From positions 397-64,396 of the IMG/VR virus record IMGVR_UViG_3300027887_000012: a stretch of 64,000 nucleotides of DNA. One strand, 5' to 3'. The notes under the pieces are model-generated. The model saw only the letters and a list, made by a program, of their open reading frames with translations. It was not told where the DNA came from and did no database searches. Positions 39,337 to 61,408 of this stretch are shown piece after piece. The stretch's first letter is position 1; every line of letters begins with the position of its first letter. This DNA is from a virus. Taxonomy: Duplodnaviria; Caudoviricetes. Both the position numbers and the translations under genes were made by a program.

Positions 39337-39954
39337 ATGGTTGGTACAGAAACATCAGGAAATTATGGTCATGCGGGCAGACCCGGAGAAGTCGGAGGCA
39401 GTGCGCCGGGTGGTGCCGCACCAAACCCACACCAAAACGTTGACGGGTTGGGAGAGGATTCTTATGGCGAATCAAACTATCGCGGGATAAAATTGATATC
39501 TTATGATAATATTGGTGATAAAGACAAAGCGTTTCAAAATGCGCATGATATAAAAAACGCGTTAGATAAAGCCCCTCAAAAAGATTACGAAGGATTAAAA
39601 GAACTTTACGTAACTGGTGGGGGGAGTTGGTTAGGTTCATCCTGTTATTTCCCAGAACATGATAGTCTGCTCTTAATGGATGGGTGGTTATCAAAAACAT
39701 CAGATGAAAGAGAGCGATCGTTACTTCACGAAATCGGGCATCGTGCGCAGTTTGTGACACGCAAACAGGACTTTGTTGATTTTCGCACTCATGGACTTAA
39801 AAAATACTTTTATGATGTTATTGACTCAAAATATTCTGATAATTATAAACCATCACAACACGCAGGGGAAACATTTGCGCAATCTTACGCATTATATCTT
39901 TGTAATATAAAACAACCAGAAGAATTAAATCAATTTTGGAGGGATAGGTTATGA
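39337..39954 (+). CDS. N-tagged zincin metallopeptidase effector
   Basis: MVGTETSGNYGHAGRPGEVGGS tag; LLHEIGH plus GETFAQSY. Confidence 0.75.
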   Translation: MVGTETSGNYGHAGRPGEVGGSAPGGAAPNPHQNVDGLGEDSYGESNYRGIKLISYDNIGDKDKAFQNAHDIKNALDKAPQKDYEGLKELYVTGGGSWLGSSCYFPEHDSLLLMDGWLSKTSDERERSLLHEIGHRAQFVTRKQDFVDFRTHGLKKYFYDVIDSKYSDNYKPSQHAGETFAQSYALYLCNIKQPEELNQFWRDRL

Positions 39955-40088
39955 AATTTGATAGTGTTCCCATAGAAGAATTCCCAAAAGAGCTGCGAAA
40001 AAAACTTATTGATAAAGTAATGGGTAAAAAAACAGTTATAGACTATGCGGTATCAAAGCCGATAGATAATAGACTGGTGAAAGAATGA
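39951..40088 (+). CDS. 45-aa partner with C-terminal PIDNRLV tag
   Basis: Not in ORF track; ATGA overlap; MKFDSVPIEEFPKELRKKLIDKVMGKKTVIDYAVSKPIDNRLVKE. Confidence 0.7.
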   Translation: MKFDSVPIEEFPKELRKKLIDKVMGKKTVIDYAVSKPIDNRLVKE

Positions 40089-40924
40089 AGGCGAAAGTTG
40101 AAAAGACCACAAAGAAAGAACCGAAAGAACCAAAAGATTCAAAAAAGGATATCCCGATGATAGATATTACTGATGAACACGATATTTACCGTGGAGAAGT
40201 CGAAACGCCGCGTGTATTGTGTATCATACCCGCGCGTGCAGGTAGTAAAGGCGTTCCCGACAAAAACATCAAACCTCTTTGGGGCAAACCACTTGTCTGG
40301 CACAGTGTGGAAGCTGCGAAAAACTGCGGGTATCCGTTGCAAAGAATTGTGGTATCAACAGAGTCACAACAGTATGCAGACATTGTGGAAGGATGGTGCG
40401 GTAAAGGATTGGTGCCGTTCTTACGCCCATCAGAGCTGGCGCACGATACAACCCCAACCTATCCAGTTATCATTCATACACTGGACACACTCAAAGAACG
40501 GTTCGGTGAAACCTATGATGTTGTCCTATTACTTGAACCAACCTCGCCACTGCGAACAGGACAACAGATCAATGAGGCATTGACCGCGTTGTTCCGGTCA
40601 AAGTATCGATCGATGGTATCTGTCTTCAAATCAGAACAATGTCATCCCGTTCTTGCGTTTAAGAAGGGCAGAGATGACCAGTTGCAACCATATGATGGTG
40701 CAGAATACCCCGCACACCCGCGCAGGCAGGCATTAAGCCCTGTCTATTTCATGGACGGGTCACTCTATGCATCATTCGTTGATACCTATCGACAAAAACA
40801 GAGTTTTGATCATGAGGACACTCTTGCATATGTCATGGAGGAATGGCAATCGTTTGAAGTCGATCACATCTGGGATTTCTATGTGATAGAAGGTATCCTG
40901 AAATGGAGGTCGGTGCCCGGATGA
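40085..40924 (+). CDS. neuA: acylneuraminate cytidylyltransferase (CMP-nonulosonate synthetase)
   Basis: IIPARAGSKGVPDKNIK, VVSTES, RPSELA.D, LEPTSPLR, DGSLY, SFEVD. Confidence 0.92.
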   Translation: MKAKVEKTTKKEPKEPKDSKKDIPMIDITDEHDIYRGEVETPRVLCIIPARAGSKGVPDKNIKPLWGKPLVWHSVEAAKNCGYPLQRIVVSTESQQYADIVEGWCGKGLVPFLRPSELAHDTTPTYPVIIHTLDTLKERFGETYDVVLLLEPTSPLRTGQQINEALTALFRSKYRSMVSVFKSEQCHPVLAFKKGRDDQLQPYDGAEYPAHPRRQALSPVYFMDGSLYASFVDTYRQKQSFDHEDTLAYVMEEWQSFEVDHIWDFYVIEGILKWRSVPG

Positions 40925-41145
40925 TACTTTACACGTTAACCGACTGCCCGAACTGCGATAACGTCAAAAGAATGTTGCACGCCGCAGGATATGAGTTTGA
41001 GGAGAAAGACATGTCCTCACCAGAATCGATTACTGAAATGCGGTTCAACGGGTGTTTTGAAATGAACGCTCCCGTGTTGCAGATTGAAGATAAATTCTAC
41101 AACTACGATCAACTCAAAGATGGTAAGATTTCAGAGGCGATTTAA
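40921..41145 (+). CDS. glutaredoxin/NrdH-like redoxin
   Basis: YTLTDCPNC...APVLQI; resembles methanogen NrdH-like proteins (from memory). Confidence 0.8.
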   Translation: MILYTLTDCPNCDNVKRMLHAAGYEFEEKDMSSPESITEMRFNGCFEMNAPVLQIEDKFYNYDQLKDGKISEAI

Positions 41146-41431
41146 AATGTGTGATAACTGTAAAGATAAATGTTCAAATTATCTCCCAACTGGGAAAAAG
41201 AGTTGTTATAAGAACAAATGTCATACGTGCGAATGCAGATGTTGCCCTGATAACTACGATTGCGAAACGCGCATTGCGAAATGTTGTTACTGTCAACACA
41301 CACCACAAAGGACTACATGGACATATACCTATCCCCCCACACCGTATTATTCAATCACATCAAATCAGTCAAACACACTATGAGGTGAGGTTACGAGTAA
41401 ATTTGTAAGTTATCGGGACGCACAAAAAATC

Positions 41432-42658
41432 ATGCCGGGTGGCAATGGACTTCTCTCAAAACGACCAGAGTTAAAGAGTGCGAACTATCCACAGTATGCC
41501 GATCGCGCGCATGGGTGCGAGATTGTTGCACAGAACAAAAAGTATCTTGACTTCCACCTGATGGGTATCGGGTGTTGCACTCTTGGATACTCGGATGAAG
41601 ATGTTGATGATGCAGTCAGAGAATGTATCCGTGACGGCAACATGACCTCTTTAAACTGTTATGAAGAATACGAACTGGCGGAACTCCTCTTAAAGACCAA
41701 TCCTGCAATGCACATGGTCAGGTTCAGTCGATTGGGTTGTGATGCACTATCACAGGCGATCAGAGTCGCGCGCGCGCATACAGGTAAATCTAAAATCCTA
41801 CATTGGGGATACCACGGGTGGCACGACTGGTATATGGCGGGTTCGTGTGAGTTTGACGCATCATTATATATGGGACCCAACGGGCAACCAAATGCAGGTA
41901 TCCCAAAATGCCTGAAGAAAAAGATTGGGCAGTTTGAACTTGATGCAGACCTGTCAAACGTTGCCGCGGTGATTCTTGAACCCGCACTGTTCACCACAGA
42001 TTTCTTGAATGAGGCGTGCCAAAAAACATATGATGCAGATGTGCCGTTGATCTATGACGAAATCACATCTGGGTTCAGGACACATCTTGGTGGCACGTAT
42101 CTTGACATAACGCGCAACTGGGACCCGGATATCGTGGTCTATGGGAAGGCGATGGGTAATGGGTATCCTATCTGCGCGATCGTTGGGAACGAACATGTTA
42201 TGAGTGCATATAATGACACGTTCGTATCGTCAACCTTCAACACAGAACGCACAGGATTTTGTGCCGCGATTGCCACTATTGAGAAGATGCAAAAGAATCG
42301 TGTGCAGGACACATTGGTTCGTAACGGAGGAGCTGTAAAGAAACTCTGGAAAGAAGCTGCGAAGGAATGCGGACTTAAACTTGAAATAACCGGCATTGAC
42401 CCGCTTGCGACCTTTGAATTCATTGAGGACGAACGATTTGATTATATTGATAAAGACGTATATGCAACTCTTTATCAACAAGAAATGGTGAAAAAAGGAT
42501 TTCTTGCAGGTAGTCAATATTACGCATCAGTCGCACACGACTTTGAGAAATCGGTTAAGTTTGAACTTGCAGTGCATGAAGTGTTCCACGACATTACCGA
42601 AAAAAACATGTATCCTGACAACGCACACATAATAAAACGCGGGGTCAAACACACATGA
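41432..42658 (+). CDS. class III aminotransferase (GSA-aminomutase-like)
   Basis: RAHGC...YLDF, VRFS..G, LIYDEITSGFR, DIVVYGKAMGNG, SSTF. Confidence 0.9.
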   Translation: MPGGNGLLSKRPELKSANYPQYADRAHGCEIVAQNKKYLDFHLMGIGCCTLGYSDEDVDDAVRECIRDGNMTSLNCYEEYELAELLLKTNPAMHMVRFSRLGCDALSQAIRVARAHTGKSKILHWGYHGWHDWYMAGSCEFDASLYMGPNGQPNAGIPKCLKKKIGQFELDADLSNVAAVILEPALFTTDFLNEACQKTYDADVPLIYDEITSGFRTHLGGTYLDITRNWDPDIVVYGKAMGNGYPICAIVGNEHVMSAYNDTFVSSTFNTERTGFCAAIATIEKMQKNRVQDTLVRNGGAVKKLWKEAAKECGLKLEITGIDPLATFEFIEDERFDYIDKDVYATLYQQEMVKKGFLAGSQYYASVAHDFEKSVKFELAVHEVFHDITEKNMYPDNAHIIKRGVKHT

Positions 42659-43278
42659 AAATCTTGGTAACAGGTGGGTCAGGGTTAATTGGTACTGCAA
42701 TTCGTCATCATTTAGTACCGAACACCATTATCAATTATGATCTCTATTTTGACTATGATGATTATATTGGTTGTAGTGCGCGCGTTGATGCGCGTATCCC
42801 ATTACACAAATATATGTATCCTGATCTTGATGTATTCATCGACTGCGCGCGATATGGCAAACCATCAGAACAGTTCATAACATGGAACACGGTTATCAAT
42901 CACTTTAAACAACAGGGTAAAGGCAAAATGATCCTGTTTTCATCAATCTATGGTCACAAGGTACCCGATTTCTCAATCTATCAAGATACAGAAATTGAAG
43001 AAACACCGATTGAATACGCGATCTGGAAGGCAGGCACAGAACACGCAACACGATTCTTGGCGCAGAAACTTAAACCTTATTACATTCAAGTTAATTGCAT
43101 TGCACCCGGTGGTGTTCATGATAAACAATCACTTGCGTTCCAACAACTTTATAAGGAAAGTGGTGGTGTATCGATGATCACAACAAAGAATATATTACCT
43201 GTTATTGATATGTTGTTACACAAAGACAACGCGATCAACGGGCAGGTAATAACGATCGATAAAGGATGGTCGTTATGA
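42655..43278 (+). CDS. short-chain dehydrogenase/reductase (PtmA-like)
   Basis: TGGSGLIG, FSSIYG, YAIWK, VNCIAPGG, GQVITIDKG. Confidence 0.85.
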   Translation: MKILVTGGSGLIGTAIRHHLVPNTIINYDLYFDYDDYIGCSARVDARIPLHKYMYPDLDVFIDCARYGKPSEQFITWNTVINHFKQQGKGKMILFSSIYGHKVPDFSIYQDTEIEETPIEYAIWKAGTEHATRFLAQKLKPYYIQVNCIAPGGVHDKQSLAFQQLYKESGGVSMITTKNILPVIDMLLHKDNAINGQVITIDKGWSL

Positions 43279-43974
43279 TTGATATGATATCAGACACACC
43301 ATATAAATGCCCGAAATGTAATCTGGTAGGTGTAGTAATGAAACGCGAACCACGAATACTGCATATGAAATGTGGTCGATGCGGTGCAACGTGGCAATGT
43401 AAAGAGGTGACTGGGAATTGAGTAACGATCAACCGTTCTTATGTGAAATCTGCGGGAAAATAGGTCGTGTAATGTGTGAACGACCGCAGATTGGTGGTGG
43501 TGTGACGTATGAAATGCGATGCGAATGTGGGAACGAATGGGGAGTCAACCGGTGGGTTCATGACAGGACATGACTATGACAACAACGGATAAATACGAAC
43601 TGTTTGAAATGCAGGACTTTGGGAAAGGCAGACTCATCATGGTTTCTCCCGGGTTTGATACTGTGAAAACCTATTATCTGCACCTGCGTAAAGACTCACC
43701 AGAGATGAAACTGCAAATCTTACGAACAAAAAAAGAAGTCGTGGATATGAGTGATTGGGAATGAGGAAAGAGTGGGATATGTTTGAGGGAATGTTTGAGT
43801 TTTTTTCGTTTGGATATATATTATCAACATTTACTACTACATTCGCATTTATTTATATGATTATTGAACCATCGATTAAAACTTTTACAATCATGATTTT
43901 ACTTGCTATTTTTGGTGCAATCTGTTGTTTGGCATGGGATGATCTCAATCGTTTCAGGATATGGTGTTTTGTGA

Positions 43975-44862
43975 ATGGTTAAAATACTTGTACCTATTGG
44001 TTGTCGAAGCGATGAGGGATTATCTGCACCTGTTATCAAACGGATGAAATCGGCAGGGTTTGAGGTAAAGACAATTCGACTTGATGCACAACAGTTCATA
44101 CCATCGTATCAGGTTGTTGACTTGATGTGCAGAGGACAGAATCATGTTGGCACATTTGCGTGGAAACCAGACCTTGTTTTCATTACAGGTGATCGTGTAG
44201 AAATGTGCGCGGCTGCGTGCGCCGCATTTCATAACAAGATCAAGATCGCGCATTTCTACGGAGGAGTGGTGAACATCCCTATAACCACCTTCGATGATAT
44301 TGATCGTCACTGCATCACACTCTGGTCAGACATTCAATTTGTTGAAAGTGATGAATGCGCGGATGTTGTTGCAGATTTACGAAAAAACTTTCATTTGATG
44401 AATTCGAGGCACAATATTCACGTTGTGGGTATTTCACACATGGATGATTTGGAGGTTGACGAATCACTGGTGCCGCATTCCTGTTTTCCAGAATGTCACA
44501 AACAGGAATATGATCTGGTTCTGATGAATGGTGAAACAATACTGCTGACCGCAGGATGGATATGGGATCATAAACGTCACGAAATTCAGATAGGATCAAA
44601 TCCAGATAAAAATATTGGCAGACTTGTGGGTGTTGATACCTATTATGAGAATCTACCCAGACCGCAATTTCTCGGACTCTTAAAGAACTGCACGCGATTC
44701 ATCACCAATTCGTCCTGCGCGATCTACGAAGCTCCCTATTTCCTTAAACCCGAACAGATCGTAATGATAGGTGATCGTAACAAGAATCGAACAAAGGGAT
44801 CCTTTGAAATCGGTGCCAGTGATAAAATTGTAAAGATATTGAGGGAAAAATATGGAACATGA
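43975..44862 (+). CDS. neuC: UDP-N-acetylglucosamine 2-epimerase (hydrolysing NeuC/LegG type)
   Basis: GCRSD, TGDRVE, AHFYGG, DDIDRHCIT, VGISHMD, ITNSS...EAP, IGDRN. Confidence 0.85.
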   Translation: MVKILVPIGCRSDEGLSAPVIKRMKSAGFEVKTIRLDAQQFIPSYQVVDLMCRGQNHVGTFAWKPDLVFITGDRVEMCAAACAAFHNKIKIAHFYGGVVNIPITTFDDIDRHCITLWSDIQFVESDECADVVADLRKNFHLMNSRHNIHVVGISHMDDLEVDESLVPHSCFPECHKQEYDLVLMNGETILLTAGWIWDHKRHEIQIGSNPDKNIGRLVGVDTYYENLPRPQFLGLLKNCTRFITNSSCAIYEAPYFLKPEQIVMIGDRNKNRTKGSFEIGASDKIVKILREKYGT

Positions 44863-45292
44863 CTTTGTATTCAAACAATTAATCGTTCATCCGGGCGGGT
44901 ATCACGTAAAATATACTTGCGTGAATCCGGGATGCGATATCTCATTCGAATTGCCAATGGATGACCCTGATGCAATAGACCCCTCTGTTAAACGGAATTA
45001 CAGGTCTATCAAACAGATGATAAAAGGGAATTATCCTGATTGCCCGTATACCTGCGATACCGATCCATTCAAACAGGCGCGTGAAGATAATATTAAGGAT
45101 TCCACATGAAACATAATTGGGTATTCACCGAAGCAAAACATGAGGATGGATGTACTGAACTGATTTTCAGGTGTTCAAATACAGGATGCACAAAATTCGC
45201 GTCATTCGCAACAGGCTCCCGGTATATCAGCCGAACCCTAAAATTCGGATTGGAAAAACTCAATAAGACCGAAACAAAATGGGATGTTTGCC

Positions 45293-45670: not shown

Positions 45671-45708
45671 TGATTGTAGTCGTTTATATTGATATAAAGG
45701 GGTGTAAT

Positions 45709-46125: not shown

Positions 46126-46148
46126 CCCAATCTGACTCCAGATTGACA

Positions 46149-47023: not shown

Positions 47024-48601
47024 GTGAGTAAAGTAACTGTGGTTTTAAATGCATTAAATAATGGTGCGGAGATTGACGGTGCGATGATTGCCGCACTCGT
47101 TCAATCAAACAGAGATAATCGCAAACGCATGACCGACATGCATGGGCGATATATCGGGTCAAAAGAATCGATACCTGTGTTCAGTCGCGAATTCCTTGAC
47201 CAATCAAAAATAAACTCAAAACTCAATAATGATTTCTTCAGTGATATCGTAGATACCAAAGTCGGGTATCTTCTTGGTATTCCTGTAAGTTATACCTATC
47301 GTGAACCAGAACCCGACGAATCAACGGGTCAACCAAATCCTATTGAGGCACAAAACAAAAAGATCATTGATGAGAAACTTCAGGACTTCGCGCGCAGAGA
47401 GAATCTTTCAGAGGTCGATGCAGAAACCGCAAAGTTCGCCGCAATATGTGGGTTCGGTGCGCGACTGTGTTTTGTCGGCGAGGATGGCGATGAACATGTG
47501 CAGAACGTGTATCCGTGGGAGTGCATTTTCCTTGTCGATGACAATGACATTCAACATCCAGATTACGCATTGCGATATTGGGAAGAGGAGGTCGCAATCA
47601 GTGGGATAGATAACACTCAAACGATTTACAAGTGCGAGTTTTATGATGAGAAGAATATCTATTACTTCATACAGGTAATCGATACTTCCAATACTAACCC
47701 ATCACCAACCGCCTCACAAATGGTGACGTTTACATTAGACCCCAACAAACCACCTCAACCGCATATGTTCGCAACCTGCCCATTAATAGGATTCCCGAAC
47801 AATGATGAAATGATTGGTGACTGCGATAAAGTGTTGTCATTAATTGACGCATACGATCGCACACTCTCTGATCTATCTTCAGAACTGGAACAGATGCGGC
47901 TGGCATACATGGCAATCTATGGTGTAAGACCAGATGACGATTTCCTTGCACAAATCAAAAAGACTGGTACAATAGGGTTTGACGACCCGGAAGATCGTGT
48001 TGAATTTATCCAGAAGAATCTTAACGACACAGTAATTGAAAATCACTTGAATAGGTTGTGTGAAGATATCTATTATTTCAGTGGGTCGCCGAATTTCAGA
48101 GATCAGGCGTTCGCAGGTAATATCTCTGGGGTTGCACTGAAGTTTAAACTATTCAAACTGGAATCAAAATGTATATCAGCGGAACGTGAATTCCAAGTTG
48201 CACTGCATCAGATGTTTGAAATCGTTGGTACCAAATGGCAGATTGAAGCTGTTGACTTTGAACCAGATGATGTGGAGTATAAGTTTAAGAGAAACTTCCC
48301 ATTGAACCTTGCAGATGAGGCGTCCACAACCTCAATGTTGGCAGGACTTGTATCTGAAGAAACCAGACTCAAACAATTATCGTTCGTTCCAGACCCTAAA
48401 AAGGAGTTGGAATTAATGAAGGCAGAACAACAGGAACAGATTAACCTTCAACAATTCGCAAATGCGAATGCCCAGAACCCACAGGAACAACCTGCACAAC
48501 CCAACGCACAGGATCAAGGACAAAATCAAGTACAACCTCAACCGGGAGATTATAATTCTCCCGTGGGGTATCGACAGATGGATTATCAGGGGGTAAAGTA
48601 A
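47024..48601 (+). CDS. portal protein (SPP1 gp6-like)
   Basis: NDFFSDIVDTKVGYLLGIP, NNDEMIGD...LIDAYD, GNISGVALKFK, FKRNFP. Confidence 0.93.
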   Translation: MSKVTVVLNALNNGAEIDGAMIAALVQSNRDNRKRMTDMHGRYIGSKESIPVFSREFLDQSKINSKLNNDFFSDIVDTKVGYLLGIPVSYTYREPEPDESTGQPNPIEAQNKKIIDEKLQDFARRENLSEVDAETAKFAAICGFGARLCFVGEDGDEHVQNVYPWECIFLVDDNDIQHPDYALRYWEEEVAISGIDNTQTIYKCEFYDEKNIYYFIQVIDTSNTNPSPTASQMVTFTLDPNKPPQPHMFATCPLIGFPNNDEMIGDCDKVLSLIDAYDRTLSDLSSELEQMRLAYMAIYGVRPDDDFLAQIKKTGTIGFDDPEDRVEFIQKNLNDTVIENHLNRLCEDIYYFSGSPNFRDQAFAGNISGVALKFKLFKLESKCISAEREFQVALHQMFEIVGTKWQIEAVDFEPDDVEYKFKRNFPLNLADEASTTSMLAGLVSEETRLKQLSFVPDPKKELELMKAEQQEQINLQQFANANAQNPQEQPAQPNAQDQGQNQVQPQPGDYNSPVGYRQMDYQGVK

Positions 48602-48799
48602 ATGGGTGGACCCGGTAGTGGACCCAGACCCGGTAGTGGCAAACGACATTCACCGAAGAATCTTGTCACAACTGGTACAAAGAAAGTATCGACAAAGACT
48701 ATGAAATCAAACTGGCAATCGAACAACCCTTGGACTTCAGGCAGGAGAATCCCGCCAATGGAAGGTTCAAGGTCAAGAGTATTGAAATCAAAGAAGTGA
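48602..48799 (+). CDS. small basic peptide with MGGPGSG tag
   Basis: MGGPGSGPRPGSGKRH...; starts directly after portal stop. Confidence 0.65.
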   Translation: MGGPGSGPRPGSGKRHSPKNLVTTGTKKVSTKTMKSNWQSNNPWTSGRRIPPMEGSRSRVLKSKK

Positions 48800-48808
48800 G
48801 GACGAATC

Positions 48809-49645
48809 TTGGGTGGTGCAGGTAGTGGTTGGTTCGCATCGGCAGGACACGTATCCCATAAAACCGTTGATGTTTTACAGGTAGGACGCATTGACAAAGA
48901 GTATGCGAAAATCCCCAACAACTACGAGATCGAACATATTAATGGGCATTATGATAAGGACGCGTTTGAATCAATTGGCGCATATACCAATGCAAGTGGT
49001 GACTATACAACCATCAATAAAATAATGCGCGGTATTGATCCCAGTGACGAGAAGTATGGTCATCCAGATCAGATTTGGGTATATCGAACGCACGGACTTA
49101 TCCCGAAGGATGAGGCAATCATGCAGGCACAAAAAGATATTGAAAATCTCAATCGCGCAATGGAGAAAACCCCATTAAAAGGAGATGTGAAAGTATATCG
49201 CGGAGTACCAGAATATCTGGCAAACACTTTAATATCAGGAAAAACAATAACTGATAACGCATTTCAGTCCACTTCTTTATCATTGCGTCCAGCGTCAAAG
49301 TTCTCCTTTGTGTATTCAAACAACAACAACTCCAAGACGATCGATGTTTTGGAATTCGTTGCAAAGAAAGGTGAACCATCGATTTTTTCTGAAGATTATG
49401 GTGAGAAAGAACTGATCCTGAAAGGCGGTCAGTATAAAGCGATATCTTACACTCTTGCAACGACTCTCAAAGACCCAGATGGTGAAATTCCTACTTATTA
49501 CAAACCAACGCGCATTATTCAGGTAGAACGTATCCCAAAGACAGGACAACAAACCACGTTCGTTAAAACCGACCCCGGCAATCCTGCATTAGATTTCGCA
49601 AAACAAGTTGAGTCATCGAAGATCGCTGGTGCAACTCCCGCATGA
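48809..49645 (+). CDS. N-tagged ADP-ribosyltransferase (R-S-E clade)
   Basis: TTG start; MGGAGSGWFASAGH tag; YT...YTTIN, VYRG, FQSTS, GEKELIL. Confidence 0.85.
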   Translation: MGGAGSGWFASAGHVSHKTVDVLQVGRIDKEYAKIPNNYEIEHINGHYDKDAFESIGAYTNASGDYTTINKIMRGIDPSDEKYGHPDQIWVYRTHGLIPKDEAIMQAQKDIENLNRAMEKTPLKGDVKVYRGVPEYLANTLISGKTITDNAFQSTSLSLRPASKFSFVYSNNNNSKTIDVLEFVAKKGEPSIFSEDYGEKELILKGGQYKAISYTLATTLKDPDGEIPTYYKPTRIIQVERIPKTGQQTTFVKTDPGNPALDFAKQVESSKIAGATPA

Positions 49646-50223: not shown

Positions 50224-50367
50224 ATGGGTGGACCCGGTTCAGGTAGAAAGGCAACAGGTCGTGCCGCAAAACCCGCAGGAAAAAAGAGTATTCCTGATAA
50301 GGAACGCACGCACGTACCCAAATATTTTGGGTTTGGTATTGGATTCAGAATGGTCAAACGAAAATGA
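50224..50367 (+). CDS. 47-aa basic peptide with MGGPGSG tag
   Basis: Not in ORF track; AGGTGA RBS; MGGPGSGRKATGRAAKPAGKKSIPDKERTHVPKYFGFGIGFRMVKRK. Confidence 0.65.
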   Translation: MGGPGSGRKATGRAAKPAGKKSIPDKERTHVPKYFGFGIGFRMVKRK

Positions 50368-52358: not shown

Positions 52359-55241
52359 ATGGCATACTTCTATCCTCAATGGAAATTTGTTCAAAGGATA
52401 GCGGTAGCTAATCCCCCTACAACAACCGGATATCAGGTAAAAATCACTATTCCTTGGAAACCCGGTATGCGGGATGATTTCGCAGACCTACGTTTTTCAG
52501 ATTATAAAAGAATATTACCATATTGGATAGAAACCACTTCGACAACAACCCGCGTATCGGCTGTTGTATGGGTAAAATTAACCGAAACTAATAATAACGC
52601 AATAGAATTTTTCTGTTATTACGGGAATGGTACTGCAACTTCAGAATCTACGGGGTCAATCTTTGAACTGTTTGACGATTTTACGGGGTCATCTCTTGAT
52701 ACTACATTATGGACGAGGATTGATGGAACAGATGATACGATATCAAATTCTGTTTTTAAGACAACGCTTGCCGATCACACAGGAGTTTATGAGGGTATCC
52801 GTACCAATTCAGCAGTCGCGGCGACATGTAGATTAGTCTTTTATGAAAAAGTATATATCAATGGGTCAAGCGAAACACATCACGGATTCTATATCGGGGA
52901 TGGAGCCTCGAATCTTTACTTTACCGGATGGGCAGATCCTGATGTTTATTGGGATGGGGTAAGTACCAATTATTACACCGGGATAACTTCAGGCGTTTTT
53001 GCACGATATGAATGTATCCGTAATGGAGCAACGAACACACTGGTTTATTGTAATAACGTTTATCTGGGAGCTGATACAGTAGGGGATACTGGGGAACATC
53101 AAGTCGGATTCTTGTGTGATACCAGTACTGGAATAAACAACGCATTTGAATTAGATTGGGTATTCGTTACAAAATATCAGGGAGCTGATCCTGTTTGTAC
53201 CCCTGCACAAATACTCATTAACCCCCCATATTATCAATCGTTAATCGGTCAAAAACTTGCATTAGCCCCTTCAGCCCCCGGCACATCCAATCCATTAGTT
53301 CTTGATTCGGGTACACTGGATAATGATTATCTTGACATTCAACGGACAACATCTACCGTAACTAAAACTGCATCCTATGACATTTTACGGGCAAGTCAAA
53401 CCGTTAGTAAATCAGCGGCATATAAAATCGCGCGGGTAACAGCCGCGATTACGAAAACATCCGCGTATAAAATCCAAAGGGTAACGCAAACAGTAACAAA
53501 AACAGCCACGTATGATATTTTAAGAACAACCTCTGCGGCGATCACAAAATCAGCCGCGTATAAGATTGCCCGCGTAACAGCCGCAATTACAAAAACCGCG
53601 TCATATGATATTCAACGGATTAGTCAATCGGTAACAAAAACCGCAACCTATGATATCTTACGGGTATCCCAAACAGTTTCAAAAAGCGCGGCGTATAAAA
53701 TTTTACGGATAACCCCTTCAACAATCACAAAGACCGCACAATATGAGGTTACTCCCGCTACTACTACGGGAACGGTAACGGTTACAAAGACTGCGGCATA
53801 TAAAATCGCGCGGGTCATAACAACAATCACAAAGACCGCGAACTACGATATTCAACGGATAACCCAGACTATTACTAAAGGTGCGGCATACAAGATTCTA
53901 TCCTCCCTGACCGTAGCAAAACAGGCAAGTTATGATATCCTCCGCCCTACCCAGACCCTTACGAAACAGGCAAAATATAATATCATCCCGATAGGCGCAA
54001 CAGTTACACTCACAAAGAACGCGGCATATAAGATTGCCCGCGTTACTTCAGCGATTACCAAAACTGCGACCTACGATATCTTACGGATTACACTGGCAGT
54101 TCAAAAGGCGGCGGCTTATAAAATTTTAACCTCGCCAACATTAACGAAACAGGCGGCATACCGCATCCTACGACTTACCCCCTCAACCATCACTAAATCA
54201 GCCACGTATGATATCCTACGGATTACTCCTGCGGTCATTACGAAACAGGCGGCGTATAAAATCGGCAGGGTAACATCTGCGCTTACAAAAACTGCCAATT
54301 ACGATATAATCAATACAAAGACAATCTATGTTTCAGCATCCTATTGGATTTTAGGACAATCCACAAACACACAAACGGTTACAAAGAGCGCGGCATATAA
54401 AATTCAGCGCATACCGCAGACTGTAACAAAGACTGCGAAGTATAATATTGCCCTGCTTGCCTCCCCCTTCACAGTATCAAAGAGTGCCGCGTATAAAATC
54501 GCAAGAGTAATTACCGCAATCACAAAATCGGCAGACTACCACATTCAGAGAATCTCACAATCAGTTACAAAATCCGCAACCTATGATATTCAAAGGGTAT
54601 CCCAAACAGTAACAAAATCTGCGGCATATAAAATCCAATCCAGTAAAACGATTACGGTATCGGCAACATACTGGATTTTTGGTCAGGGAATAGGTAGTCA
54701 AACCATTACTAAATCAGCCGCGTATAAGATTCAACGGATATCCCAGACAGTTCAAAAGACGGCGCAATATAAGATTAGTAGTTCTGTAGCGGTAGTTAAA
54801 TCTGCATCCTATAAAATATTAAGGATTACAACAGCCCCGGTTACAAAGGCGGCTCAATACCTCATTCAAAGGATTACCCCTACTACCATCAGTAAATCAG
54901 CGCAGTTTAAAATAGCGGTAAGTAAAACAGTATCTAAACAGGCATCATATAAGATTAAGATCACAGGTGGTTCAGGTGGCGGAGGGGGTACAGGAGATTA
55001 TTCTGGTCTTATACAAGTCGATGCGAAATATCAGATCACGCCCGCTGGGTCAAACATTGTCTTTACTACTGCAACATATAAGATTAAACAGACCGGCGGG
55101 TCGGGTCCCGGTGGGTCAAAGGTTATTCAAGTGACTGCATCATATGGTATTATCAATCCTAACTGGCACGAACCTTACTGGTATGAACGCGCATTCCATG
55201 AAAAAGAAATGGTCTGGAATATAAGACAGAGGCGATCATAA
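52359..55241 (+). CDS. DUF2341-type adhesin with ~38 short tandem repeats
   Basis: DFADLRFSD...LPYWIE...VWVKL...YYGN...FELFDDF N-terminal domain; repeats of [TS]K[TSQ]AxY[KD]IxR. Confidence 0.75.
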   Translation: MAYFYPQWKFVQRIAVANPPTTTGYQVKITIPWKPGMRDDFADLRFSDYKRILPYWIETTSTTTRVSAVVWVKLTETNNNAIEFFCYYGNGTATSESTGSIFELFDDFTGSSLDTTLWTRIDGTDDTISNSVFKTTLADHTGVYEGIRTNSAVAATCRLVFYEKVYINGSSETHHGFYIGDGASNLYFTGWADPDVYWDGVSTNYYTGITSGVFARYECIRNGATNTLVYCNNVYLGADTVGDTGEHQVGFLCDTSTGINNAFELDWVFVTKYQGADPVCTPAQILINPPYYQSLIGQKLALAPSAPGTSNPLVLDSGTLDNDYLDIQRTTSTVTKTASYDILRASQTVSKSAAYKIARVTAAITKTSAYKIQRVTQTVTKTATYDILRTTSAAITKSAAYKIARVTAAITKTASYDIQRISQSVTKTATYDILRVSQTVSKSAAYKILRITPSTITKTAQYEVTPATTTGTVTVTKTAAYKIARVITTITKTANYDIQRITQTITKGAAYKILSSLTVAKQASYDILRPTQTLTKQAKYNIIPIGATVTLTKNAAYKIARVTSAITKTATYDILRITLAVQKAAAYKILTSPTLTKQAAYRILRLTPSTITKSATYDILRITPAVITKQAAYKIGRVTSALTKTANYDIINTKTIYVSASYWILGQSTNTQTVTKSAAYKIQRIPQTVTKTAKYNIALLASPFTVSKSAAYKIARVITAITKSADYHIQRISQSVTKSATYDIQRVSQTVTKSAAYKIQSSKTITVSATYWIFGQGIGSQTITKSAAYKIQRISQTVQKTAQYKISSSVAVVKSASYKILRITTAPVTKAAQYLIQRITPTTISKSAQFKIAVSKTVSKQASYKIKITGGSGGGGGTGDYSGLIQVDAKYQITPAGSNIVFTTATYKIKQTGGSGPGGSKVIQVTASYGIINPNWHEPYWYERAFHEKEMVWNIRQRRS
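53361..55160 (+). repeat. intragenic ~13-20 aa tandem repeats (about 38 counted)
   Basis: e.g. TVTKTASYDILRASQ, TVSKSAAYKIARVTAA. Confidence 0.9.
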
Positions 55242-56785
55242 TGGCATCACCATCACAAAACCCATATCAGACTGCGCATTTGCAGGATGTATTCAAACAC
55301 CTTGCAGATTACGCGCAGACTCGTATGGCAGACTTTGAAAAGTTGTCGGCACCAGATTACGCGCGCGCAATGCAGGAAGTCAGAAACGTTGTTGCAGATG
55401 CATATGGGCAATACGGTCAAGCTGGTACACTTACTTATGCAGAAATGCAACGGTACAATCGTATAGGTAAACTAAAATCGGAAATCGAATATGCAATAAA
55501 AAACAACCTGCGTGAAGTTGCACCGAAGGCACAAAAGATACTCACAGATACCGCAAATTACTCTTATAACGGGAGTGCGAATATTGCGGCGCAATTGACA
55601 ACCATAAAACTACCAAAACTATCTGCGCAGGAAGTATCTGACATTATCAACAAATCACCGGGAATTGGGCCCGGCATGTCGTTTATTGACCGCATGAGAT
55701 TACGACAATCTGATACCATTGTGCGTATGCAAAAAGACGTGATGCGTCAACTCATGAAACCAGACGGCGCGCCGTTAGAGGACACATGGGCATCAATTCA
55801 ATCATCAATGGAAAAGACATATCTGCGAGATATCGCCGCATTAAAAGACGAGGCGCATCATGTATCTCAAAGTGCGATTGATGCAAGTGTGAAATATGGG
55901 ACCGATGCAGGACTCAAACCCGTTAAAATCTGGATGACCGCTGGTGATGAGAAAGTAAGACCTGCACACGCGGCACTTGATGGGCAGGTAAGAGATGCCA
56001 ACGAACCGTTTACTGTTGGTGAAGATACAACCTTTGCAAGCGGGTCTGGTACAGAATGGGATGGGTATCAGGCAATGGCACCAATGGAGTTTGGTGAACC
56101 TGCACTTGACTATAATTGCAGGTGTTGGATAGTGGCAGATTGGAGAGATTCTGGTGAAGAATCGGTTGATCCTGATATTCGTGTAGAAGCTGCAACCAGA
56201 CACGCGGACGCGGTTGATCGTTCTGATAGTATCATGAACCTCTTTAATAAGATCGTTAGTGATTATGGCGGTGACATTAACGGAGATTACAATCTTACAA
56301 ATTATCGAACAAAGAGCGAACCTTCTATCGCAGAGAAAATCTCGCGCAAAATGGATATGGCAAATCGATATAACGAGCCCATGACCGTTCAAGAAGCTGC
56401 CGACAGTATCAAAGATTATTCACGATTTACCGCAGAATTCCCCCCAGATATTTACACTGAAGGTTATTATATGACCTACGATTCACTTTTAAAAGAAGGG
56501 TGGGAACCAGTTGATGTTGAAAACAAATGGGTATCGAACCCAGAATATCATGGGATTAACACACAATGGAAACTACCAGACGGTAATTATGTAGAAGTGC
56601 AGTTCCACACACCAGAAGGATCAAACTATATGCAGGGGACAGGACATAAATTATATGAGGCGTATCGGACAAGTGACGATCTCTATACAAAATGGTCACT
56701 ATGGTCACAAATGGTTGACAACTGGGAATCAATCGACCAACCCCCCGGGATTGATGAGATCACTGATTATAAGGGAGGCGCATAA
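55241..56785 (+). CDS. MuF (SPP1 gp7-like) minor head protein fused to RelA/SpoT-like nucleotidyltransferase
   Basis: KIWMTAGDEKVRPAH..LDG...NCRC MuF motif; RTKSEPSIAEK...KDYSRF...YHGIN...EVQFHT C-terminal domain. Confidence 0.85.
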   Translation: MASPSQNPYQTAHLQDVFKHLADYAQTRMADFEKLSAPDYARAMQEVRNVVADAYGQYGQAGTLTYAEMQRYNRIGKLKSEIEYAIKNNLREVAPKAQKILTDTANYSYNGSANIAAQLTTIKLPKLSAQEVSDIINKSPGIGPGMSFIDRMRLRQSDTIVRMQKDVMRQLMKPDGAPLEDTWASIQSSMEKTYLRDIAALKDEAHHVSQSAIDASVKYGTDAGLKPVKIWMTAGDEKVRPAHAALDGQVRDANEPFTVGEDTTFASGSGTEWDGYQAMAPMEFGEPALDYNCRCWIVADWRDSGEESVDPDIRVEAATRHADAVDRSDSIMNLFNKIVSDYGGDINGDYNLTNYRTKSEPSIAEKISRKMDMANRYNEPMTVQEAADSIKDYSRFTAEFPPDIYTEGYYMTYDSLLKEGWEPVDVENKWVSNPEYHGINTQWKLPDGNYVEVQFHTPEGSNYMQGTGHKLYEAYRTSDDLYTKWSLWSQMVDNWESIDQPPGIDEITDYKGGA

Positions 56786-57372
56786 TGGTAGGCGGGCCCG
56801 GGTCAGGTAATTTTGGTCATGCAGGACGACCGGGAGAGGTTGGTGGCAGTGCGAGTGTAGGCAGTGCGCCGAAATCTTCACCAGAAAGTAAAAACATAGG
56901 TCATGGGTCACGATTGAATGGTCATCCTAAAACAGAGGCAAAACGCATTAAAGAAGGTGTGCCAAAAGAAGTCAAAGAACGAAAACATGGGATAGAAGAA
57001 ATCACGTATGCCTATACTGGGTTGAGTGAAATGAAAGTCGATGCACCAAAAGTCGATCGTTCAAACATCCCAAAGAACGATATCGAACGACAAGGCAGAT
57101 GTTTTGAACTTGCAGGCAGGTTTGTTATGGATAATCCCGATTGGAATATCGTTCATGCGACCTTATACCCACGACTTGGAAATTTCGGTGACAGTATTTA
57201 CTTTCATGGGTATGCGCAAAAAGATAAGATTATCTTTGACCCGGTGTTTAATCAGTTCTTTAATGCAGACAAACACGAAAAATATTATACGACAACAGAT
57301 AAACGTATATACGATCACACAACGGCAATGAAAATGATGTTAAAATCTGGCAATTATGGGCCATGGGAGTAA
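56785..57372 (+). CDS. N-tagged papain/transglutaminase-like effector
   Basis: MVGGPGSGNFGHAGRPGEVGGS tag; GRCFELA...HGY...IFDP putative Cys-His-Asp triad. Confidence 0.6.
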   Translation: MVGGPGSGNFGHAGRPGEVGGSASVGSAPKSSPESKNIGHGSRLNGHPKTEAKRIKEGVPKEVKERKHGIEEITYAYTGLSEMKVDAPKVDRSNIPKNDIERQGRCFELAGRFVMDNPDWNIVHATLYPRLGNFGDSIYFHGYAQKDKIIFDPVFNQFFNADKHEKYYTTTDKRIYDHTTAMKMMLKSGNYGPWE

Positions 57373-57374
57373 CT

Positions 57375-57668
57375 ATGGAATCAACTGATACCGCACCAGT
57401 TTATGAGGTTAAATCTCAACAGTCTTTTTTAACAAAAGAAGATGCAATAAAACTCATGATGAAATCGGCGCAATATTATAAACAACGCCCAGTGTATTCA
57501 GGAATAAAAAAGGATATAATAATAAAATTCGATGGTAATTTCTCATACTGGTCACCATTAGATCAGATGTGGATAAAAGACGATTACCTGTTTAAAGAGT
57601 GTATGCAAGGACATATGGAACGAATCACGTATGATGAGGCAATGAAAATGATTGAGGAGTTGAAATAA
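57375..57668 (+). CDS. small protein, candidate immunity protein
   Basis: YY...FSYWS...W..DDYLF...ERITYDEAMKMIE; lies in toxin cluster; untagged. Confidence 0.45.
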   Translation: MESTDTAPVYEVKSQQSFLTKEDAIKLMMKSAQYYKQRPVYSGIKKDIIIKFDGNFSYWSPLDQMWIKDDYLFKECMQGHMERITYDEAMKMIEELK

Positions 57669-58414
57669 TGGGTGGTCCCGGTAGTGGATGGTTTGCGAGT
57701 GCAGGACATGTACCGCATGTAACTGAACTGGTATCTGGTATGCGATATGCACCAGAGGTAATGAACACGATAAATCAAAAGTTCGCACGACAACCGAAAG
57801 GTCAAGGAAAATCTGTTCCGTTAAAAAAGGATGAACTCAACGCTGTCCTTAATGCGGGAAAATATGGGTTGGTCAGTGCGGGACCCAACACGAAAGAAAC
57901 TGATGCAGGCGCGAAAGATAAGGATAAAGACGAACAGTATTTCCGCGATCGTCACGATCAACTTAAATCATCACTGAATGAAATGGGATATCAATATACT
58001 GAAGTCGTTGGGAAATATGGAGAGATAGAAGATTCGTTCCTCATAATGACTCACGAAACTGATAAGGCAGACCTGATGAATCTCGGTATGAAATTCAATC
58101 AGGACAGTGTGATTTATGGTGAAGGTGGTAAACAGGAGATGATCTACACTTCAAAATCCTATTACGAAATCGGTGAGAAAGGCGATCCTAATTACAAGCG
58201 TATCCCAGTAACAATCGGTGACGCGCATGTTGGTACAGGATTCGATACCGTTGATTTAGAGGCAAATAACTATTATACTGAAGTGCCAACTCCTGAAGGC
58301 AAAGTCAGGTTCAGTTTGCATTATGATTTTGAGAAGGTGCAAACTTCAACCCTTGGTGATTATAAATCAAAGGATTATCAATCATCTTCACCGATTGATA
58401 ACAGGCAGGTGTGA
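57668..58414 (+). CDS. N- and C-tagged SAM-lyase-like (T3 SAMase/DUF3293-like) protein
   Basis: MGGPGSGWFASAGH tag; YGLVSA...RHDQL..SL...GKYGEIEDSF...FNQDSVI; ends PIDNRQV. Confidence 0.6.
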   Translation: MGGPGSGWFASAGHVPHVTELVSGMRYAPEVMNTINQKFARQPKGQGKSVPLKKDELNAVLNAGKYGLVSAGPNTKETDAGAKDKDKDEQYFRDRHDQLKSSLNEMGYQYTEVVGKYGEIEDSFLIMTHETDKADLMNLGMKFNQDSVIYGEGGKQEMIYTSKSYYEIGEKGDPNYKRIPVTIGDAHVGTGFDTVDLEANNYYTEVPTPEGKVRFSLHYDFEKVQTSTLGDYKSKDYQSSSPIDNRQV

Positions 58415-58415
58415 T

Positions 58416-59063
58416 ATGGGCGGTGAAGGTTCTGGTAACTTCGGTCACGCAGGCAGACTCGGTGAGGTAGGAGGATCATCAACCGAAGGATCATCATTAT
58501 CATCAGACCACGTCAAACAAATAAAAGAGAATTCAAAGGATTTCGCACAACGAGATTATAATAAGGCGGATTATGAACATATGATTGCATATAAAAATGG
58601 GAATTATACCTACGAATCAAAAACGCATGATAGGGCAAGTTGTCAAATTGCCGAAGATATTGATGATATGGATTTGGTACACAATCACCCGGGAGGATCA
58701 CCAGCCTTATCTGCGCCAGATATTTTCGTGTCTGCATATCAAAACGTATCATCAATAACGGCAATGAATCGTAAAGGAGAGGCATGGACAGTATCACGAC
58801 CAAAAGAAGGTTGGGCGAAATGGGCAGATGATAAGTTTGGTATGAAAGTTGACACATCTGAATTTCAAAAAACCGTGCGATCTCAATTTGATAAGACCTC
58901 GGATGAAGTATTTGATTTACCAGAAATGCAACCACTTCATCTTGCGTTTACCAGAGGAGAGATTGATTTAAATGGGGTGGAAGTTATATTTGCAAACAAG
59001 ACCTCTGAAACATTCTGTAAAAAGTATGGTTTGACAGTGACAAAACATGGTGGTGCAAAATGA
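58416..59063 (+). CDS. N-tagged JAB/MPN domain effector
   Basis: ATG 58416; MGGEGSGNFGHAGRLGEVGGS tag; LVHNHPGGSPALSAPD (HxH...S..D). Confidence 0.7.
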   Translation: MGGEGSGNFGHAGRLGEVGGSSTEGSSLSSDHVKQIKENSKDFAQRDYNKADYEHMIAYKNGNYTYESKTHDRASCQIAEDIDDMDLVHNHPGGSPALSAPDIFVSAYQNVSSITAMNRKGEAWTVSRPKEGWAKWADDKFGMKVDTSEFQKTVRSQFDKTSDEVFDLPEMQPLHLAFTRGEIDLNGVEVIFANKTSETFCKKYGLTVTKHGGAK

Positions 59064-59185
59064 TTCTTGATGAAGATGAATTCTGGAGGAAGATGCAGGA
59101 AAAATATCTTGAAAAAGTGCGCATCTGGCAAAAAGAACGATCGAAAACAAAATCAGAACCGATTGACAATCGACAGGTGAAATAA
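59060..59185 (+). CDS. 41-aa partner with C-terminal PIDNRQVK tag
   Basis: Not in ORF track; MILDEDEFWRKMQEKYLEKVRIWQKERSKTKSEPIDNRQVK; overlaps both neighbours. Confidence 0.7.
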   Translation: MILDEDEFWRKMQEKYLEKVRIWQKERSKTKSEPIDNRQVK

Positions 59186-60507
59186 TGGGTGGTGAAGGTT
59201 CGGGTAACTTCGGTCATGAAGGTAGACCGGGATTAGTAGGCGGGTCGGGGGAAGGCGGGCCCGGTGTAGGTGCGGCAGGTGCAAAGTTCGATCGTGCCTC
59301 TTATGAGAAAATGTCAATGGGTGACCGACGCGCATCTTGGGATAAATTATCTGTTGCAGATCGTGACAAACTCGCAGACGCGCGATACAGTGTTGACAGT
59401 CGCGTAAAAGGACTGGTATCAACCATGGGTGCATGGCAGAATACTGGTGATCTTGAAAAGGATGTGCAGGCGCGCGTTGACAGTGCAAAAGAAGAAATGT
59501 CACAGAGTTCAAACAATCTTGTTTCATATACCGCAACCATTTATGATGACTCGTTAAAGGCGGCAGGAGTTGATGACGAATCTCGCGGCAAACTGGTATG
59601 CCTTGCAACAGATTACTTAATCGCACAGGAAATGGAAACCCAGAACCGACAGTTAGGAGATCATGGTGTTCATCATATCGCTGGGGATATCGACCGCGCA
59701 TTCCAGATTGCATCGGTCTTACCCGAAGGATTGAGTAGTCAACAGAAATGTGAGATTATTACTGCAAGTGTGTTTCATGATGCAGGATACTTAACAGACC
59801 CGTCACGAATATTCTTGGATGAAGGTCATCCGCGGTGGTCTGCGCAGAACTATGATCAGAACATCGCACCGGTGATTTCTGCCGCGTTCGGGAAAGATGT
59901 TGCAGATAATGTTGGATATTACATACGCACGCATGATAGTACCGATATCAACTGGAAAGAAGACCCTGTGGGAAGTAGTGTAAGAGTATCAGATAACACC
60001 GCGTTGTTTGAAGTCGATAAACTACCCGGGGTTTTCAGAGATGTAAAAGGAACATATCAGACTCTATCAGATTTCAATGCAGGAAAAATCAATCTGGAAG
60101 ATGCGAAATCGAATATGATGACCGACATTCATAACTCCGCACTATCCGACTCGTTAAAATCGCGGTATATGAACGCGGTCACTGAAATGACCGACTATAC
60201 CCCAAAATCTACACTTGGGATGAAAGGCGGTGACATTTACGATATCACTTGGGCAGGAGATCACGTTGCGATTACGTTAAAATACAACGAACAGAAAACA
60301 CAGGATCAAAAACTCCTTGATCTGGGGCAGGCACAATTCGCAAAGTTCGCGAAGGCATATGGCAGTGACCCATATTCATTCAAAACCACCCTTGGTTTTA
60401 CGTTCGATAAGAACGGTCAGGTTCTACTTGAAGGAAGAATCTATGACCCAGATAAACCACTAACTGCGGTGTATTCAGAACCGATTGATAACAGGCAGGT
60501 GAAGTGA
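59185..60507 (+). CDS. N- and C-tagged HD-domain phosphohydrolase
   Basis: MGGEGSGNFGHEGRPGLVGGS tag; DHGVHH...VFHDAGY...H...RTHD...DN; ends EPIDNRQVK. Confidence 0.8.
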   Translation: MGGEGSGNFGHEGRPGLVGGSGEGGPGVGAAGAKFDRASYEKMSMGDRRASWDKLSVADRDKLADARYSVDSRVKGLVSTMGAWQNTGDLEKDVQARVDSAKEEMSQSSNNLVSYTATIYDDSLKAAGVDDESRGKLVCLATDYLIAQEMETQNRQLGDHGVHHIAGDIDRAFQIASVLPEGLSSQQKCEIITASVFHDAGYLTDPSRIFLDEGHPRWSAQNYDQNIAPVISAAFGKDVADNVGYYIRTHDSTDINWKEDPVGSSVRVSDNTALFEVDKLPGVFRDVKGTYQTLSDFNAGKINLEDAKSNMMTDIHNSALSDSLKSRYMNAVTEMTDYTPKSTLGMKGGDIYDITWAGDHVAITLKYNEQKTQDQKLLDLGQAQFAKFAKAYGSDPYSFKTTLGFTFDKNGQVLLEGRIYDPDKPLTAVYSEPIDNRQVK

Positions 60508-61238
60508 TGACAGATGAGGCAGATGGGATCTGGGTAACAATGAATGGGAGGCATGTCTTTATTCCCGGTGAGAATATTAACGAATCGTCTGAAGTCACCA
60601 TCAATGTGCCAGACGATTCTGAAATATGTAAGTTTGATCTTGGCACAGGAGGGGTTGTTGACGTTGTTGATAAAAACAAGGAAAATCAACGCAATGCCAT
60701 AGGTTGGTGGAAAGGCAGTGGGTTTGAGGTCATACAAAAGGCAGTCAAGACTCCAAACGATTTGTTTAAACCAGATCGCGAAAAAGGATTGGAGGCATCC
60801 AAACATATTGATAATGTTCTATCAAAAAGTAAGATAGAACAGGATACCACAGTATATCGTGGCATATCAAGTAGAACCGCATACCAGATAATGGAGAATG
60901 GCGCATTTGAGAACAAAGGATATACCGCGACCTCGGTTGCAATGGGTGACGCAATGGGATTCGCTCAACACATGCCATTAAAGATGGAAGATTCTTACGT
61001 TCCCGGAAGAGATTTGCAAAGTGTGATAATGTTCAATGTTCCTAAAGGATCGAGCGGGTTTTATTTTGGAAGAGGTAGGGAAAGTGAAGTGTTATTACCA
61101 CGCAATCTCAAATTAAAACTCACAGGTGTTCGCACATACACAAAAACATTAAATGTGAAAACAATAACGGATACAGGAAGATTACGACAACAAACATATG
61201 GCCCAGTGAGGATATACACAATGGAGATGCAGAAATGA
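60507..61238 (+). CDS. ADP-ribosyltransferase (R-S-E clade) with WVTMNGRHVFI leader
   Basis: VYRG, GYTATS, RESEVLLPR. Confidence 0.85.
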   Translation: MTDEADGIWVTMNGRHVFIPGENINESSEVTINVPDDSEICKFDLGTGGVVDVVDKNKENQRNAIGWWKGSGFEVIQKAVKTPNDLFKPDREKGLEASKHIDNVLSKSKIEQDTTVYRGISSRTAYQIMENGAFENKGYTATSVAMGDAMGFAQHMPLKMEDSYVPGRDLQSVIMFNVPKGSSGFYFGRGRESEVLLPRNLKLKLTGVRTYTKTLNVKTITDTGRLRQQTYGPVRIYTMEMQK

Positions 61239-61408
61239 TTGAACGATTCTTTGAAGATTCTACTGATGGGCTCATCTTTATAAAATCAAAGATTACTCCT
61301 GAAGAAAGAAAACGCAGTAAAGAGTTATTGAGTATCATCTACCCAGTGAACCGCGAATCACAAAAAGAATCGGTAAAATCTGGTGCGATTGATAACAGGC
61401 AGGTATAA
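61235..61408 (+). CDS. 57-aa partner with C-terminal IDNRQV tag
   Basis: Not in ORF track; MIERFFEDSTDGLIF...SVKSGAIDNRQV; ATGA overlap. Confidence 0.7.
   Translation: MIERFFEDSTDGLIFIKSKITPEERKRSKELLSIIYPVNRESQKESVKSGAIDNRQV

Follow-up and report, generated by a model that had tools for sequence, protein, structure and literature searches.

A 64,000-nt stretch of DNA (the window) from an uncultivated tailed virus contains five effector cassettes that all end in the same short peptide, S-x-[P/A]-I-D-N-R, referred to here as the tag. The window spans nearly the whole of the IMG/VR record IMGVR_UViG_3300027887_000012 (64,396 nt). The tag is located either at the C-terminus of the enzyme itself or on a small protein encoded directly downstream of it. 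The core of the tag is kept by selection on the peptide, and the cassette ending with it is the unit that is reshuffled between related viruses. The tag might be an address label that would direct the enzymes into the capsid.

The C-terminal tag

The six-frame translation of the window reveals five open reading frames (ORFs) on the plus strand that end in S-x-[PA]-I-D-N-R-[QL]-V, placed 0–3 residues before the stop codon. The codons from Ser to Val are located at positions 40053–40079 (ORF 39951–40088, where the peptide is S-K-P-I-D-N-R-L-V, followed by K-E-stop), 58385–58411 (ORF 57668–58414), 59153–59179 (ORF 59060–59185), 60475–60501 (ORF 59185–60507) and 61379–61405 (ORF 61235–61408). A degenerate DNA pattern for I-D-N-R-[QL]-V matches exactly these five sites in the window, all on the plus strand, and has no match in 100 dinucleotide-preserving shuffles. 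The invariant Ser two residues before the Pro is part of the motif. In three of the cassettes the tag is carried by a separate ORF of 41–57 amino acids, and in the other two by the enzyme itself. The overlap of enzyme and small ORF through an ATGA sequence is confirmed at 39951, 59060 and 61235. The gene that follows the tag starts with a Gly-rich N-terminal motif (N-motif) in some places and is an unrelated gene (NeuA-like or a 96-amino-acid gene) in others. The original prediction, made from the letters of the window, had listed these five ORF ends, the three ATGA couplings and differences in the D-N-R codons, all of which were found as claimed. A weak sixth look-alike, L-I-D-N-R located seven residues before the stop of ORF 37188–38036, was set aside as probably due to chance; 12 instances of [IVL]-D-N-R are present in the six-frame translation of the window.

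A census of the tag comprises 18 distinct DNA versions from the window and seven related metagenome contigs, the latter obtained from fetched contigs of homologues and from one metagenome pattern scan. None of the 18 versions departs from Ser, Asp, Asn and Arg, for which four, two, two and all six codons are used, respectively. At the Pro position the only alternative is Ala, and at the Ile position Met or Val; every copy is located 0–6 residues from the stop. Protein families that are only 42–65% identical overall keep the core, with Ile replaced by Val in one copy of an HD-like enzyme. Since the four residues are invariant despite their varied codons, selection acts on the protein, and the core of the tag is kept by peptide-level selection. 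Three of the window copies have in common an identical stretch of 19–20 nt, and most copies are below 80% DNA identity over 34 nt.

The last two positions (+5/+6), mostly Q-V and also L-V, M-V, R-V, R-stop or G-stop, are the least conserved part of the tag. Their nucleotides always contain GGTG, GGTA or AGTG, located 5–10 nt before the next start, and these are Shine-Dalgarno words enriched upstream of genes throughout the genome. Copies with CAA as the Gln codon, which weakens the Shine-Dalgarno word, have a new GGGGT further downstream and an ORF three residues longer, and the peptide is kept. As the last two residues vary with the Shine-Dalgarno sequence of the next gene, the functional peptide is S-x-[P/A]-I-D-N-R, and Q-V is largely shaped by the ribosome-binding site of the neighbor. 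Peptide-level selection had been proposed in the original prediction and is much strengthened by the 18 distinct copies, in particular by the full set of Arg codons. The overlap of R-Q-V with the ribosome-binding site, proposed along with it, stands for Q-V.

The small tag-bearing ORFs of 41 and 57 amino acids (p41 and p57) are real genes under purifying selection. Both have orthologues in a virus that is ~77% identical, with ratios of nonsynonymous to synonymous substitution rates (dN/dS) of 0.12 and 0.15, respectively. The 57-amino-acid family is encoded beside an ADP-ribosyltransferase (ART) in every relative, always with a 4-nt overlap, and the two-ORF layout is stable within each family. 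An exhaustive profile search with this family against 1.8 billion representatives returned only members of this lineage and two weak, partial matches. When modeled alone by AlphaFold2, p57 shows one helix and a low-confidence remainder. No homologue was found for the 45-amino-acid ORF at 39951, so that only its tag and its coupling to the enzyme gene speak for it as a coding sequence. None of the relatives compared showed the tag to have moved between enzyme and partner by fission or fusion. The original prediction had reckoned with a motif conserved only as DNA, with small ORFs that are not translated and with a tag missing from homologous cassettes; instead, the peptide is conserved, the small ORFs are under purifying selection and the homologous cassettes of the relatives carry the tag.

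The tagged cassettes and their enzymes

Most cassettes open with the Gly-rich N-motif of ~20 residues. Elsewhere, this motif separates the modules of multi-domain proteins in which MuF, portal or ART domains also occur, with up to four copies per protein. All genes of the cassettes described below are on the plus strand.

Cassette 1 is located between a sugar dehydratase/epimerase gene and the NeuA-like gene, 17 kb from the array formed by the other cassettes. Its enzyme (39337–39954, 205 amino acids) contains the N-motif and an HExxH signature typed as zincin-like by reading the sequence only, and it has no Pfam or PHROG family match. The tag is on its 45-amino-acid partner (39951–40088), which overlaps the enzyme gene through ATGA and whose stop overlaps the start of the NeuA-like gene. 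The HExxH protein and the 45-amino-acid ORF were also considered as a split form of a ~220-amino-acid tagged protein found in relatives, but this proved wrong, the bodies of the two not being homologous.

Cassette 2 is a single gene (57668–58414) for a 248-amino-acid protein similar to S-adenosylmethionine (SAM) lyase/DUF3293, with a score of 29.5 bits for Pfam PF23780 against a cut-off of 28. It has a variant N-motif and carries the tag itself, and its homologues in the related contigs L040, L004 and L070 end in the same tag.

The enzyme of cassette 3 (58416–59063, 215 amino acids) contains the N-motif and an H-x-H...S-x-x-D signature resembling that of JAB/MPN proteins, with only a sub-threshold match to RadC-like JAB. 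Its homologue in contig L071 is 68% identical and has the same two-ORF layout. The tag is on p41 (59060–59185), coupled through ATGA, and the dN/dS of 0.12 given above refers to the orthologue in L071.

Cassette 4 (59185–60507) encodes a mostly helical, HD/PDE-like enzyme of 440 amino acids with a conserved H...HD, which has the N-motif at one end and the tag at the other. Its AlphaFold2 model has a predicted local distance difference test (pLDDT) score of 84, and only residues 1–32, corresponding to the N-motif, and 428–440, corresponding to the tag, are below 50. Foldseek matches of this model to HD/PDE folds are weak. Homologues at 59–64% identity end in the same tag, and those at 46% identity or less lack it and end ~20 residues earlier; from these alignments the tag appears to be a tail appended to the HD-like protein.

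The enzyme of cassette 5 (60507–61238) is an ART, matching Pfam PF03496 at 6e-10, and the positions of the Arg, the S/T-rich segment and E-x-E are conserved in alignments. It lacks the Gly-rich N-motif, yet its cassette is tagged, through p57 (61235–61408), which overlaps the ART gene through ATGA. The array is closed by a gene for a 96-amino-acid protein (61409–61699), found in the same place in every locus with a visible array end (the window and contigs L004, L020 and L071). Joining of the cassettes by recoding or read-through was considered and rejected, because the frame of the gene after the junction is 0, +1 or −1 depending on the site.

Cassette order in related viruses

The order in the window is MuF, a pair of 195 and 101 amino acids, SAM-lyase-like, JAB-like with p41, HD-like, ART with p57 and the 96-amino-acid gene. 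In L067 and L071, two contigs of one sample whose modules are 72–84% identical to those of the window, it is MuF, a pair of 198 and 98 amino acids, ART with a 56-amino-acid partner, the ~220-amino-acid tagged protein, which is missing from the window, HD-like, JAB-like with p41 and the 96-amino-acid gene. In L040 and L004, whose shared modules are 42–65% identical, the order is SAM-lyase-like, two successive ARTs each with a partner, HD-like, the ~220-amino-acid protein and the 96-amino-acid gene. The slot between the dehydratase/epimerase and NeuA-like genes contains the HExxH cassette in the window (38513–40924) and an HD-like cassette in contig L005 (1–2325), and both begin at the N-motif and end at the tag. 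Cassettes of two ORFs always travel together. Hence the cassette exchange suggested in the original prediction is seen directly, in the shuffled order and in the one slot filled differently in different viruses, and the cassette from N-motif to tag is the unit reshuffled. Effector cassettes have a second landing site in the gap between the dehydratase/epimerase and NeuA-like genes.

The same virus, at least 99% identical and with the same order, is found in several soil and wetland runs from 2012–2017 with almost no variation. Phage GenBank records gave no DNA match. Neither the HD-like protein nor the portal nor the HExxH protein had a relative in IMG/VR, and two DNA patterns of the tag gave there either no match or chance internal matches only. 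A metagenome pattern scan returned 49 loci, with real terminal tags on only three contigs, all of this lineage. The tag is thus confined so far to one narrow lineage of uncultivated viruses in metagenomes of the wetland, soil and sediment type, and no paper in the searchable literature contains the strings of the tag or the N-motif. The best genome match of the HD-like family is a module, 45% identical, of a 2411-amino-acid polyvalent protein in a metagenome-assembled genome (MAG) of an unclassified archaeon (contig L060, 4290–11525), followed by an ORF of 1831 amino acids. Weaker matches are in MAGs of Patescibacteria, and the host may be an archaeon or a bacterium.

Genome setting

The record, with an estimated completeness of 79%, belongs to a tailed virus with nearly all genes on the plus strand, and the standard genetic code leaves every long ORF open. 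Tail genes are located at the left end, followed by the large terminase at 32100, a nonulosonic-acid sugar cluster (DegT, NeuB, NeuA-like) and the portal. The head genes are in the order portal, MuF, array, scaffold and capsid, the last being cut by the end of the record. Four of the five tagged cassettes are within this head-assembly module, the outlier being that at 39337–40088. A scan of the array for promoters and terminators gave nothing clearly above shuffled sequences, with 32 promoter-like sites against 22.7 ± 4.7 expected.

The features of this paragraph are also on the plus strand, as is the region 47024–49645 described below. The array is opened by a MuF-domain head protein with a C-terminal extension (55241–56785, PF04233), which has no tag and occupies the same position in L067. 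It is followed by a tagless cassette (56785–57668) made of the 195-amino-acid protein, which has the N-motif, and the 101-amino-acid ORF; this cassette is directly after MuF in the relatives and never tagged. Beyond the array there are a solo LPD29 gene (62295–62696, PF18847 above the cut-off), with neither N-motif nor tag, and the gene of a DUF4355 scaffolding protein (62916–63578); together they place the array inside the head-assembly module. LPD29 is otherwise described from large polyvalent proteins.

The SPP1-type portal (47024–48601) is followed by a 65-amino-acid Gly/Lys-rich ORF with the N-motif and by the first ART of the genome, also matching PF03496, the three spanning 47024–49645 with no tag on any of them. 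They are in one reading frame, with single stops in between at 48599–48601 and 48797–48799, and the region looks like a split, possibly read-through, fusion of portal and cargo. Two short, very basic ORFs, the one of 65 amino acids (48602–48799) and another of 47 amino acids (50224–50367), start with the opening portion of the Gly-rich motif and lack any recognizable body. Their start regions have 22 nt in common at 82% identity, inside a 40-nt repeat (D18) at 73%. Inserted between the portal and MuF genes are a 960-amino-acid protein (52359–55241), in which a DUF2341 domain precedes ~40 copies of a 15-residue (45-nt) repeat, and five ORFs with no family match. In another part of the genome, the gene of a radical SAM/SPASM (twitch) protein (25544–26515) immediately precedes those of a TET-associated glycosyltransferase and a possible nuclease (to 28295).

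Possible function of the tag

It is somewhat more likely than not that some single protein reads the tag. The tag would then be a short linear motif, S-x-[P/A]-I-D-N-R, on a flexible C-terminal tail that is recognized by one common protein partner. The purpose of such recognition is less certain. In the reading preferred here, to which we give somewhat less than an even chance, one partner recognizes the tag as an address label, and the label probably serves to load polyvalent cargo, split into separate proteins, into the capsid, either on its own or with the help of small adaptors. A common destination would explain the presence of the tag on unrelated enzymes (SAM-lyase-like, ART, JAB-like and HD-like) better than a common substrate. 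The capsid would be the most economical destination, because the enzymes have different substrates and their genes are between MuF and the scaffold. The effector enzymes may thus be brought into the assembling capsid and delivered with the DNA. In other phages, such modules are linked covalently by way of the Gly-rich junction, forming polyvalent proteins with a MuF or portal fusion; in this lineage they are separate genes, and the tag may make the connection non-covalently instead. Three enzyme families would acquire the tag in trans, by binding the translationally coupled adaptor of 41–57 amino acids. The evolutionary scenario that goes with this is more tentative and rather doubtful: the virus may have taken apart a covalent polyvalent cargo protein and may now load the separate enzymes via an encapsulin-like C-terminal peptide, some of them on adaptors, the cassettes being a re-orderable plug-in library.

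Several observations weigh against capsid loading. The reader protein is putative. Nothing was found in support of the radical SAM/SPASM protein as the reader, and the 96-amino-acid array-closing protein, considered for the same role, matches no known family or fold. The end of the record truncates the major capsid gene. The MuF protein, the cassette of 195 and 101 amino acids and the first ART are untagged in every virus seen, so that the tag is not a universal requirement for loading. The cassettes already have an N-terminal motif, and it is not obvious why they would need a second label. One of the tagged cassettes is 17 kb away, among sugar-biosynthesis genes and outside the head module. 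Finally, the copies of the tag are not independent, since all come from one narrow lineage of related contigs.

Two alternatives place the function of the tag in the nucleic acid. Conservation at the RNA level, with the tag as a translation-coupling element (Shine-Dalgarno sequence plus upstream enhancer) for the next gene, is very improbable. The next start is indeed 5–20 nt after the Arg codon in every copy, and the words at the last two positions match the enriched Shine-Dalgarno words of the genome, but this accounts for Q-V only. The core amino acids are kept through changes at the first and third codon positions (AGG, CGT, CGA), and the peptide is kept even where CAA weakens the Shine-Dalgarno word and a new one is used downstream; for the core, this reading is largely refuted by the codon census. 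The tag might also be mainly a cassette boundary, providing together with the N-motif a short homology for exchange, with no function of the peptide. The differing cassette order among the window, L067 with L071 and L004 with L040, the different occupants of the dehydratase/NeuA-like slot in the window and L005, and the 19–20-nt identity of three window copies all agree with this. However, synonymous sites are free and amino acids fixed (Arg with six codons, Ser with four), which is the opposite of selection for DNA identity, and the low identity of most copies over 34 nt points the same way. Moreover, gene borders in phages are ordinary mosaic joints, for which no conserved peptide is needed. 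A recombination boundary was one explanation offered in the original prediction; homology alone does not account for the motif, and we regard this reading as improbable.

Two further alternatives accept that the peptide is functional and assign it another role. The tag might be a sequon, in which the tail is cut, ligated or covalently modified by an enzyme at the invariant Ser or Asn; the candidates would be a protease, a radical SAM/SPASM enzyme or a glycosyltransferase using nonulosonic acid made by the virus. The invariant residues are polar (S, D, N, R) and Pro alternates with Ala, as in enzyme sequons, and the tag bears a loose resemblance to the sulfatase maturation motif, [C/S]-x-[P/A]-x-R. 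The virus encodes both the radical SAM/SPASM protein and a nonulosonic-acid pathway, and one of the tagged cassettes is inside the cluster of the latter. Nevertheless, the Arg is at +6 from the Ser, as opposed to +4 in the sulfatase motif, and the 25 best NCBIfam matches listed for the radical SAM protein include no sulfatase-maturase model. The position of this protein beside the TET-associated glycosyltransferase suggests DNA modification. No prohead protease was noticed among the portal-to-scaffold ORFs in a scan that was not exhaustive. A sequon need be neither strictly C-terminal nor located on separate partners of 41–57 amino acids, and we consider this explanation unlikely. A control of stability or activity, in which the tag is a degron or a protease/chaperone handle on toxic effectors and the small ORFs encode immunity proteins or antitoxins, has a low probability. 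The enzymes (ART, HD-like, JAB-like) are potentially toxic, and in MuF polymorphic toxin loci the small genes right after the toxin typically encode immunity. On the other hand, the carrier of the tag differs by family, being the enzyme in two and the small ORF in three, so that neither toxin nor antitoxin is marked throughout. What follows the core is variable (nothing, K, KE, P, VK, ATG or T), which makes a free C-terminal degron unlikely, and the largely unfolded-looking partners of 41–57 amino acids are small for immunity proteins. The proposal in the original prediction that the tag marks antitoxin partners was likewise not borne out, as each family keeps its own form and, in every relative, the tag of the HD-like and SAM-lyase-like cassettes is on the enzyme.

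Should the tag prove to be a loading label, a handle of seven residues would send arbitrary proteins into the capsid of a tailed virus, directly or through a small adaptor, and cargo loading could be tested with simple fusions. It would also show a phage switching between covalent (polyvalent) and non-covalent carriage of its anti-host toolkit. Whatever its function, the tag is an example of a peptide motif and the ribosome-binding site of the next gene residing on the same nucleotides, with constraints that are separable codon by codon. The scope is that of the one narrow lineage of uncultivated viruses in which the tag is found.

Comparison with known systems

Encapsulin cargo-loading peptides are short C-terminal motifs that follow a flexible linker on unrelated enzymes and dock the cargo inside a shell of HK97 fold. 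The tag is likewise a short conserved C-terminal motif on a disordered tail of unrelated proteins. However, the sequences are unrelated, the shell here would be that of a DNA-packaging tailed virus, and some of the putative cargo would be tagged in trans.

Polyvalent proteins contain at least two disparate effector domains in one polypeptide, and their enzymes are predicted to be injected with the DNA (Iyer et al. 2017, PMC5512222). The window shares with them the position beside portal, MuF and scaffold genes and a repertoire of domains, namely ART, MuF, zincin-like HExxH and LPD29; PF03496 (twice), PF04233 and PF18847 are above their cut-offs, and the HExxH was recognized from the sequence only. 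Unlike in polyvalent proteins, where the Gly-rich motif is an internal junction, here it opens separate genes, and instead of one polypeptide each module has its own ORF, with stops and changing frames in between. Term searches of the text of PMC5512222 did not reveal this C-terminal tag.

In phage T4, the internal proteins and Alt are unrelated proteins, among them an ADP-ribosyltransferase, that have a terminal peptide in common and are packed into the head and injected (PMC5512222). The capsid-targeting sequence of T4 is N-terminal and is removed by the prohead protease, whereas the tag described here is C-terminal, and no protease family was found among the head-module ORFs covered by the non-exhaustive scan.

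The loci of MuF polymorphic toxins resemble the array in having a MuF protein with a C-terminal effector extension followed by small downstream genes, but the tagged enzymes here are not fused to MuF and MuF itself is untagged. The tag is not an immunity mark, because in two families it is on the enzyme itself. Terminal labels common to several cargo proteins of a phage are already known from T4, and C-terminal loading peptides from encapsulins.

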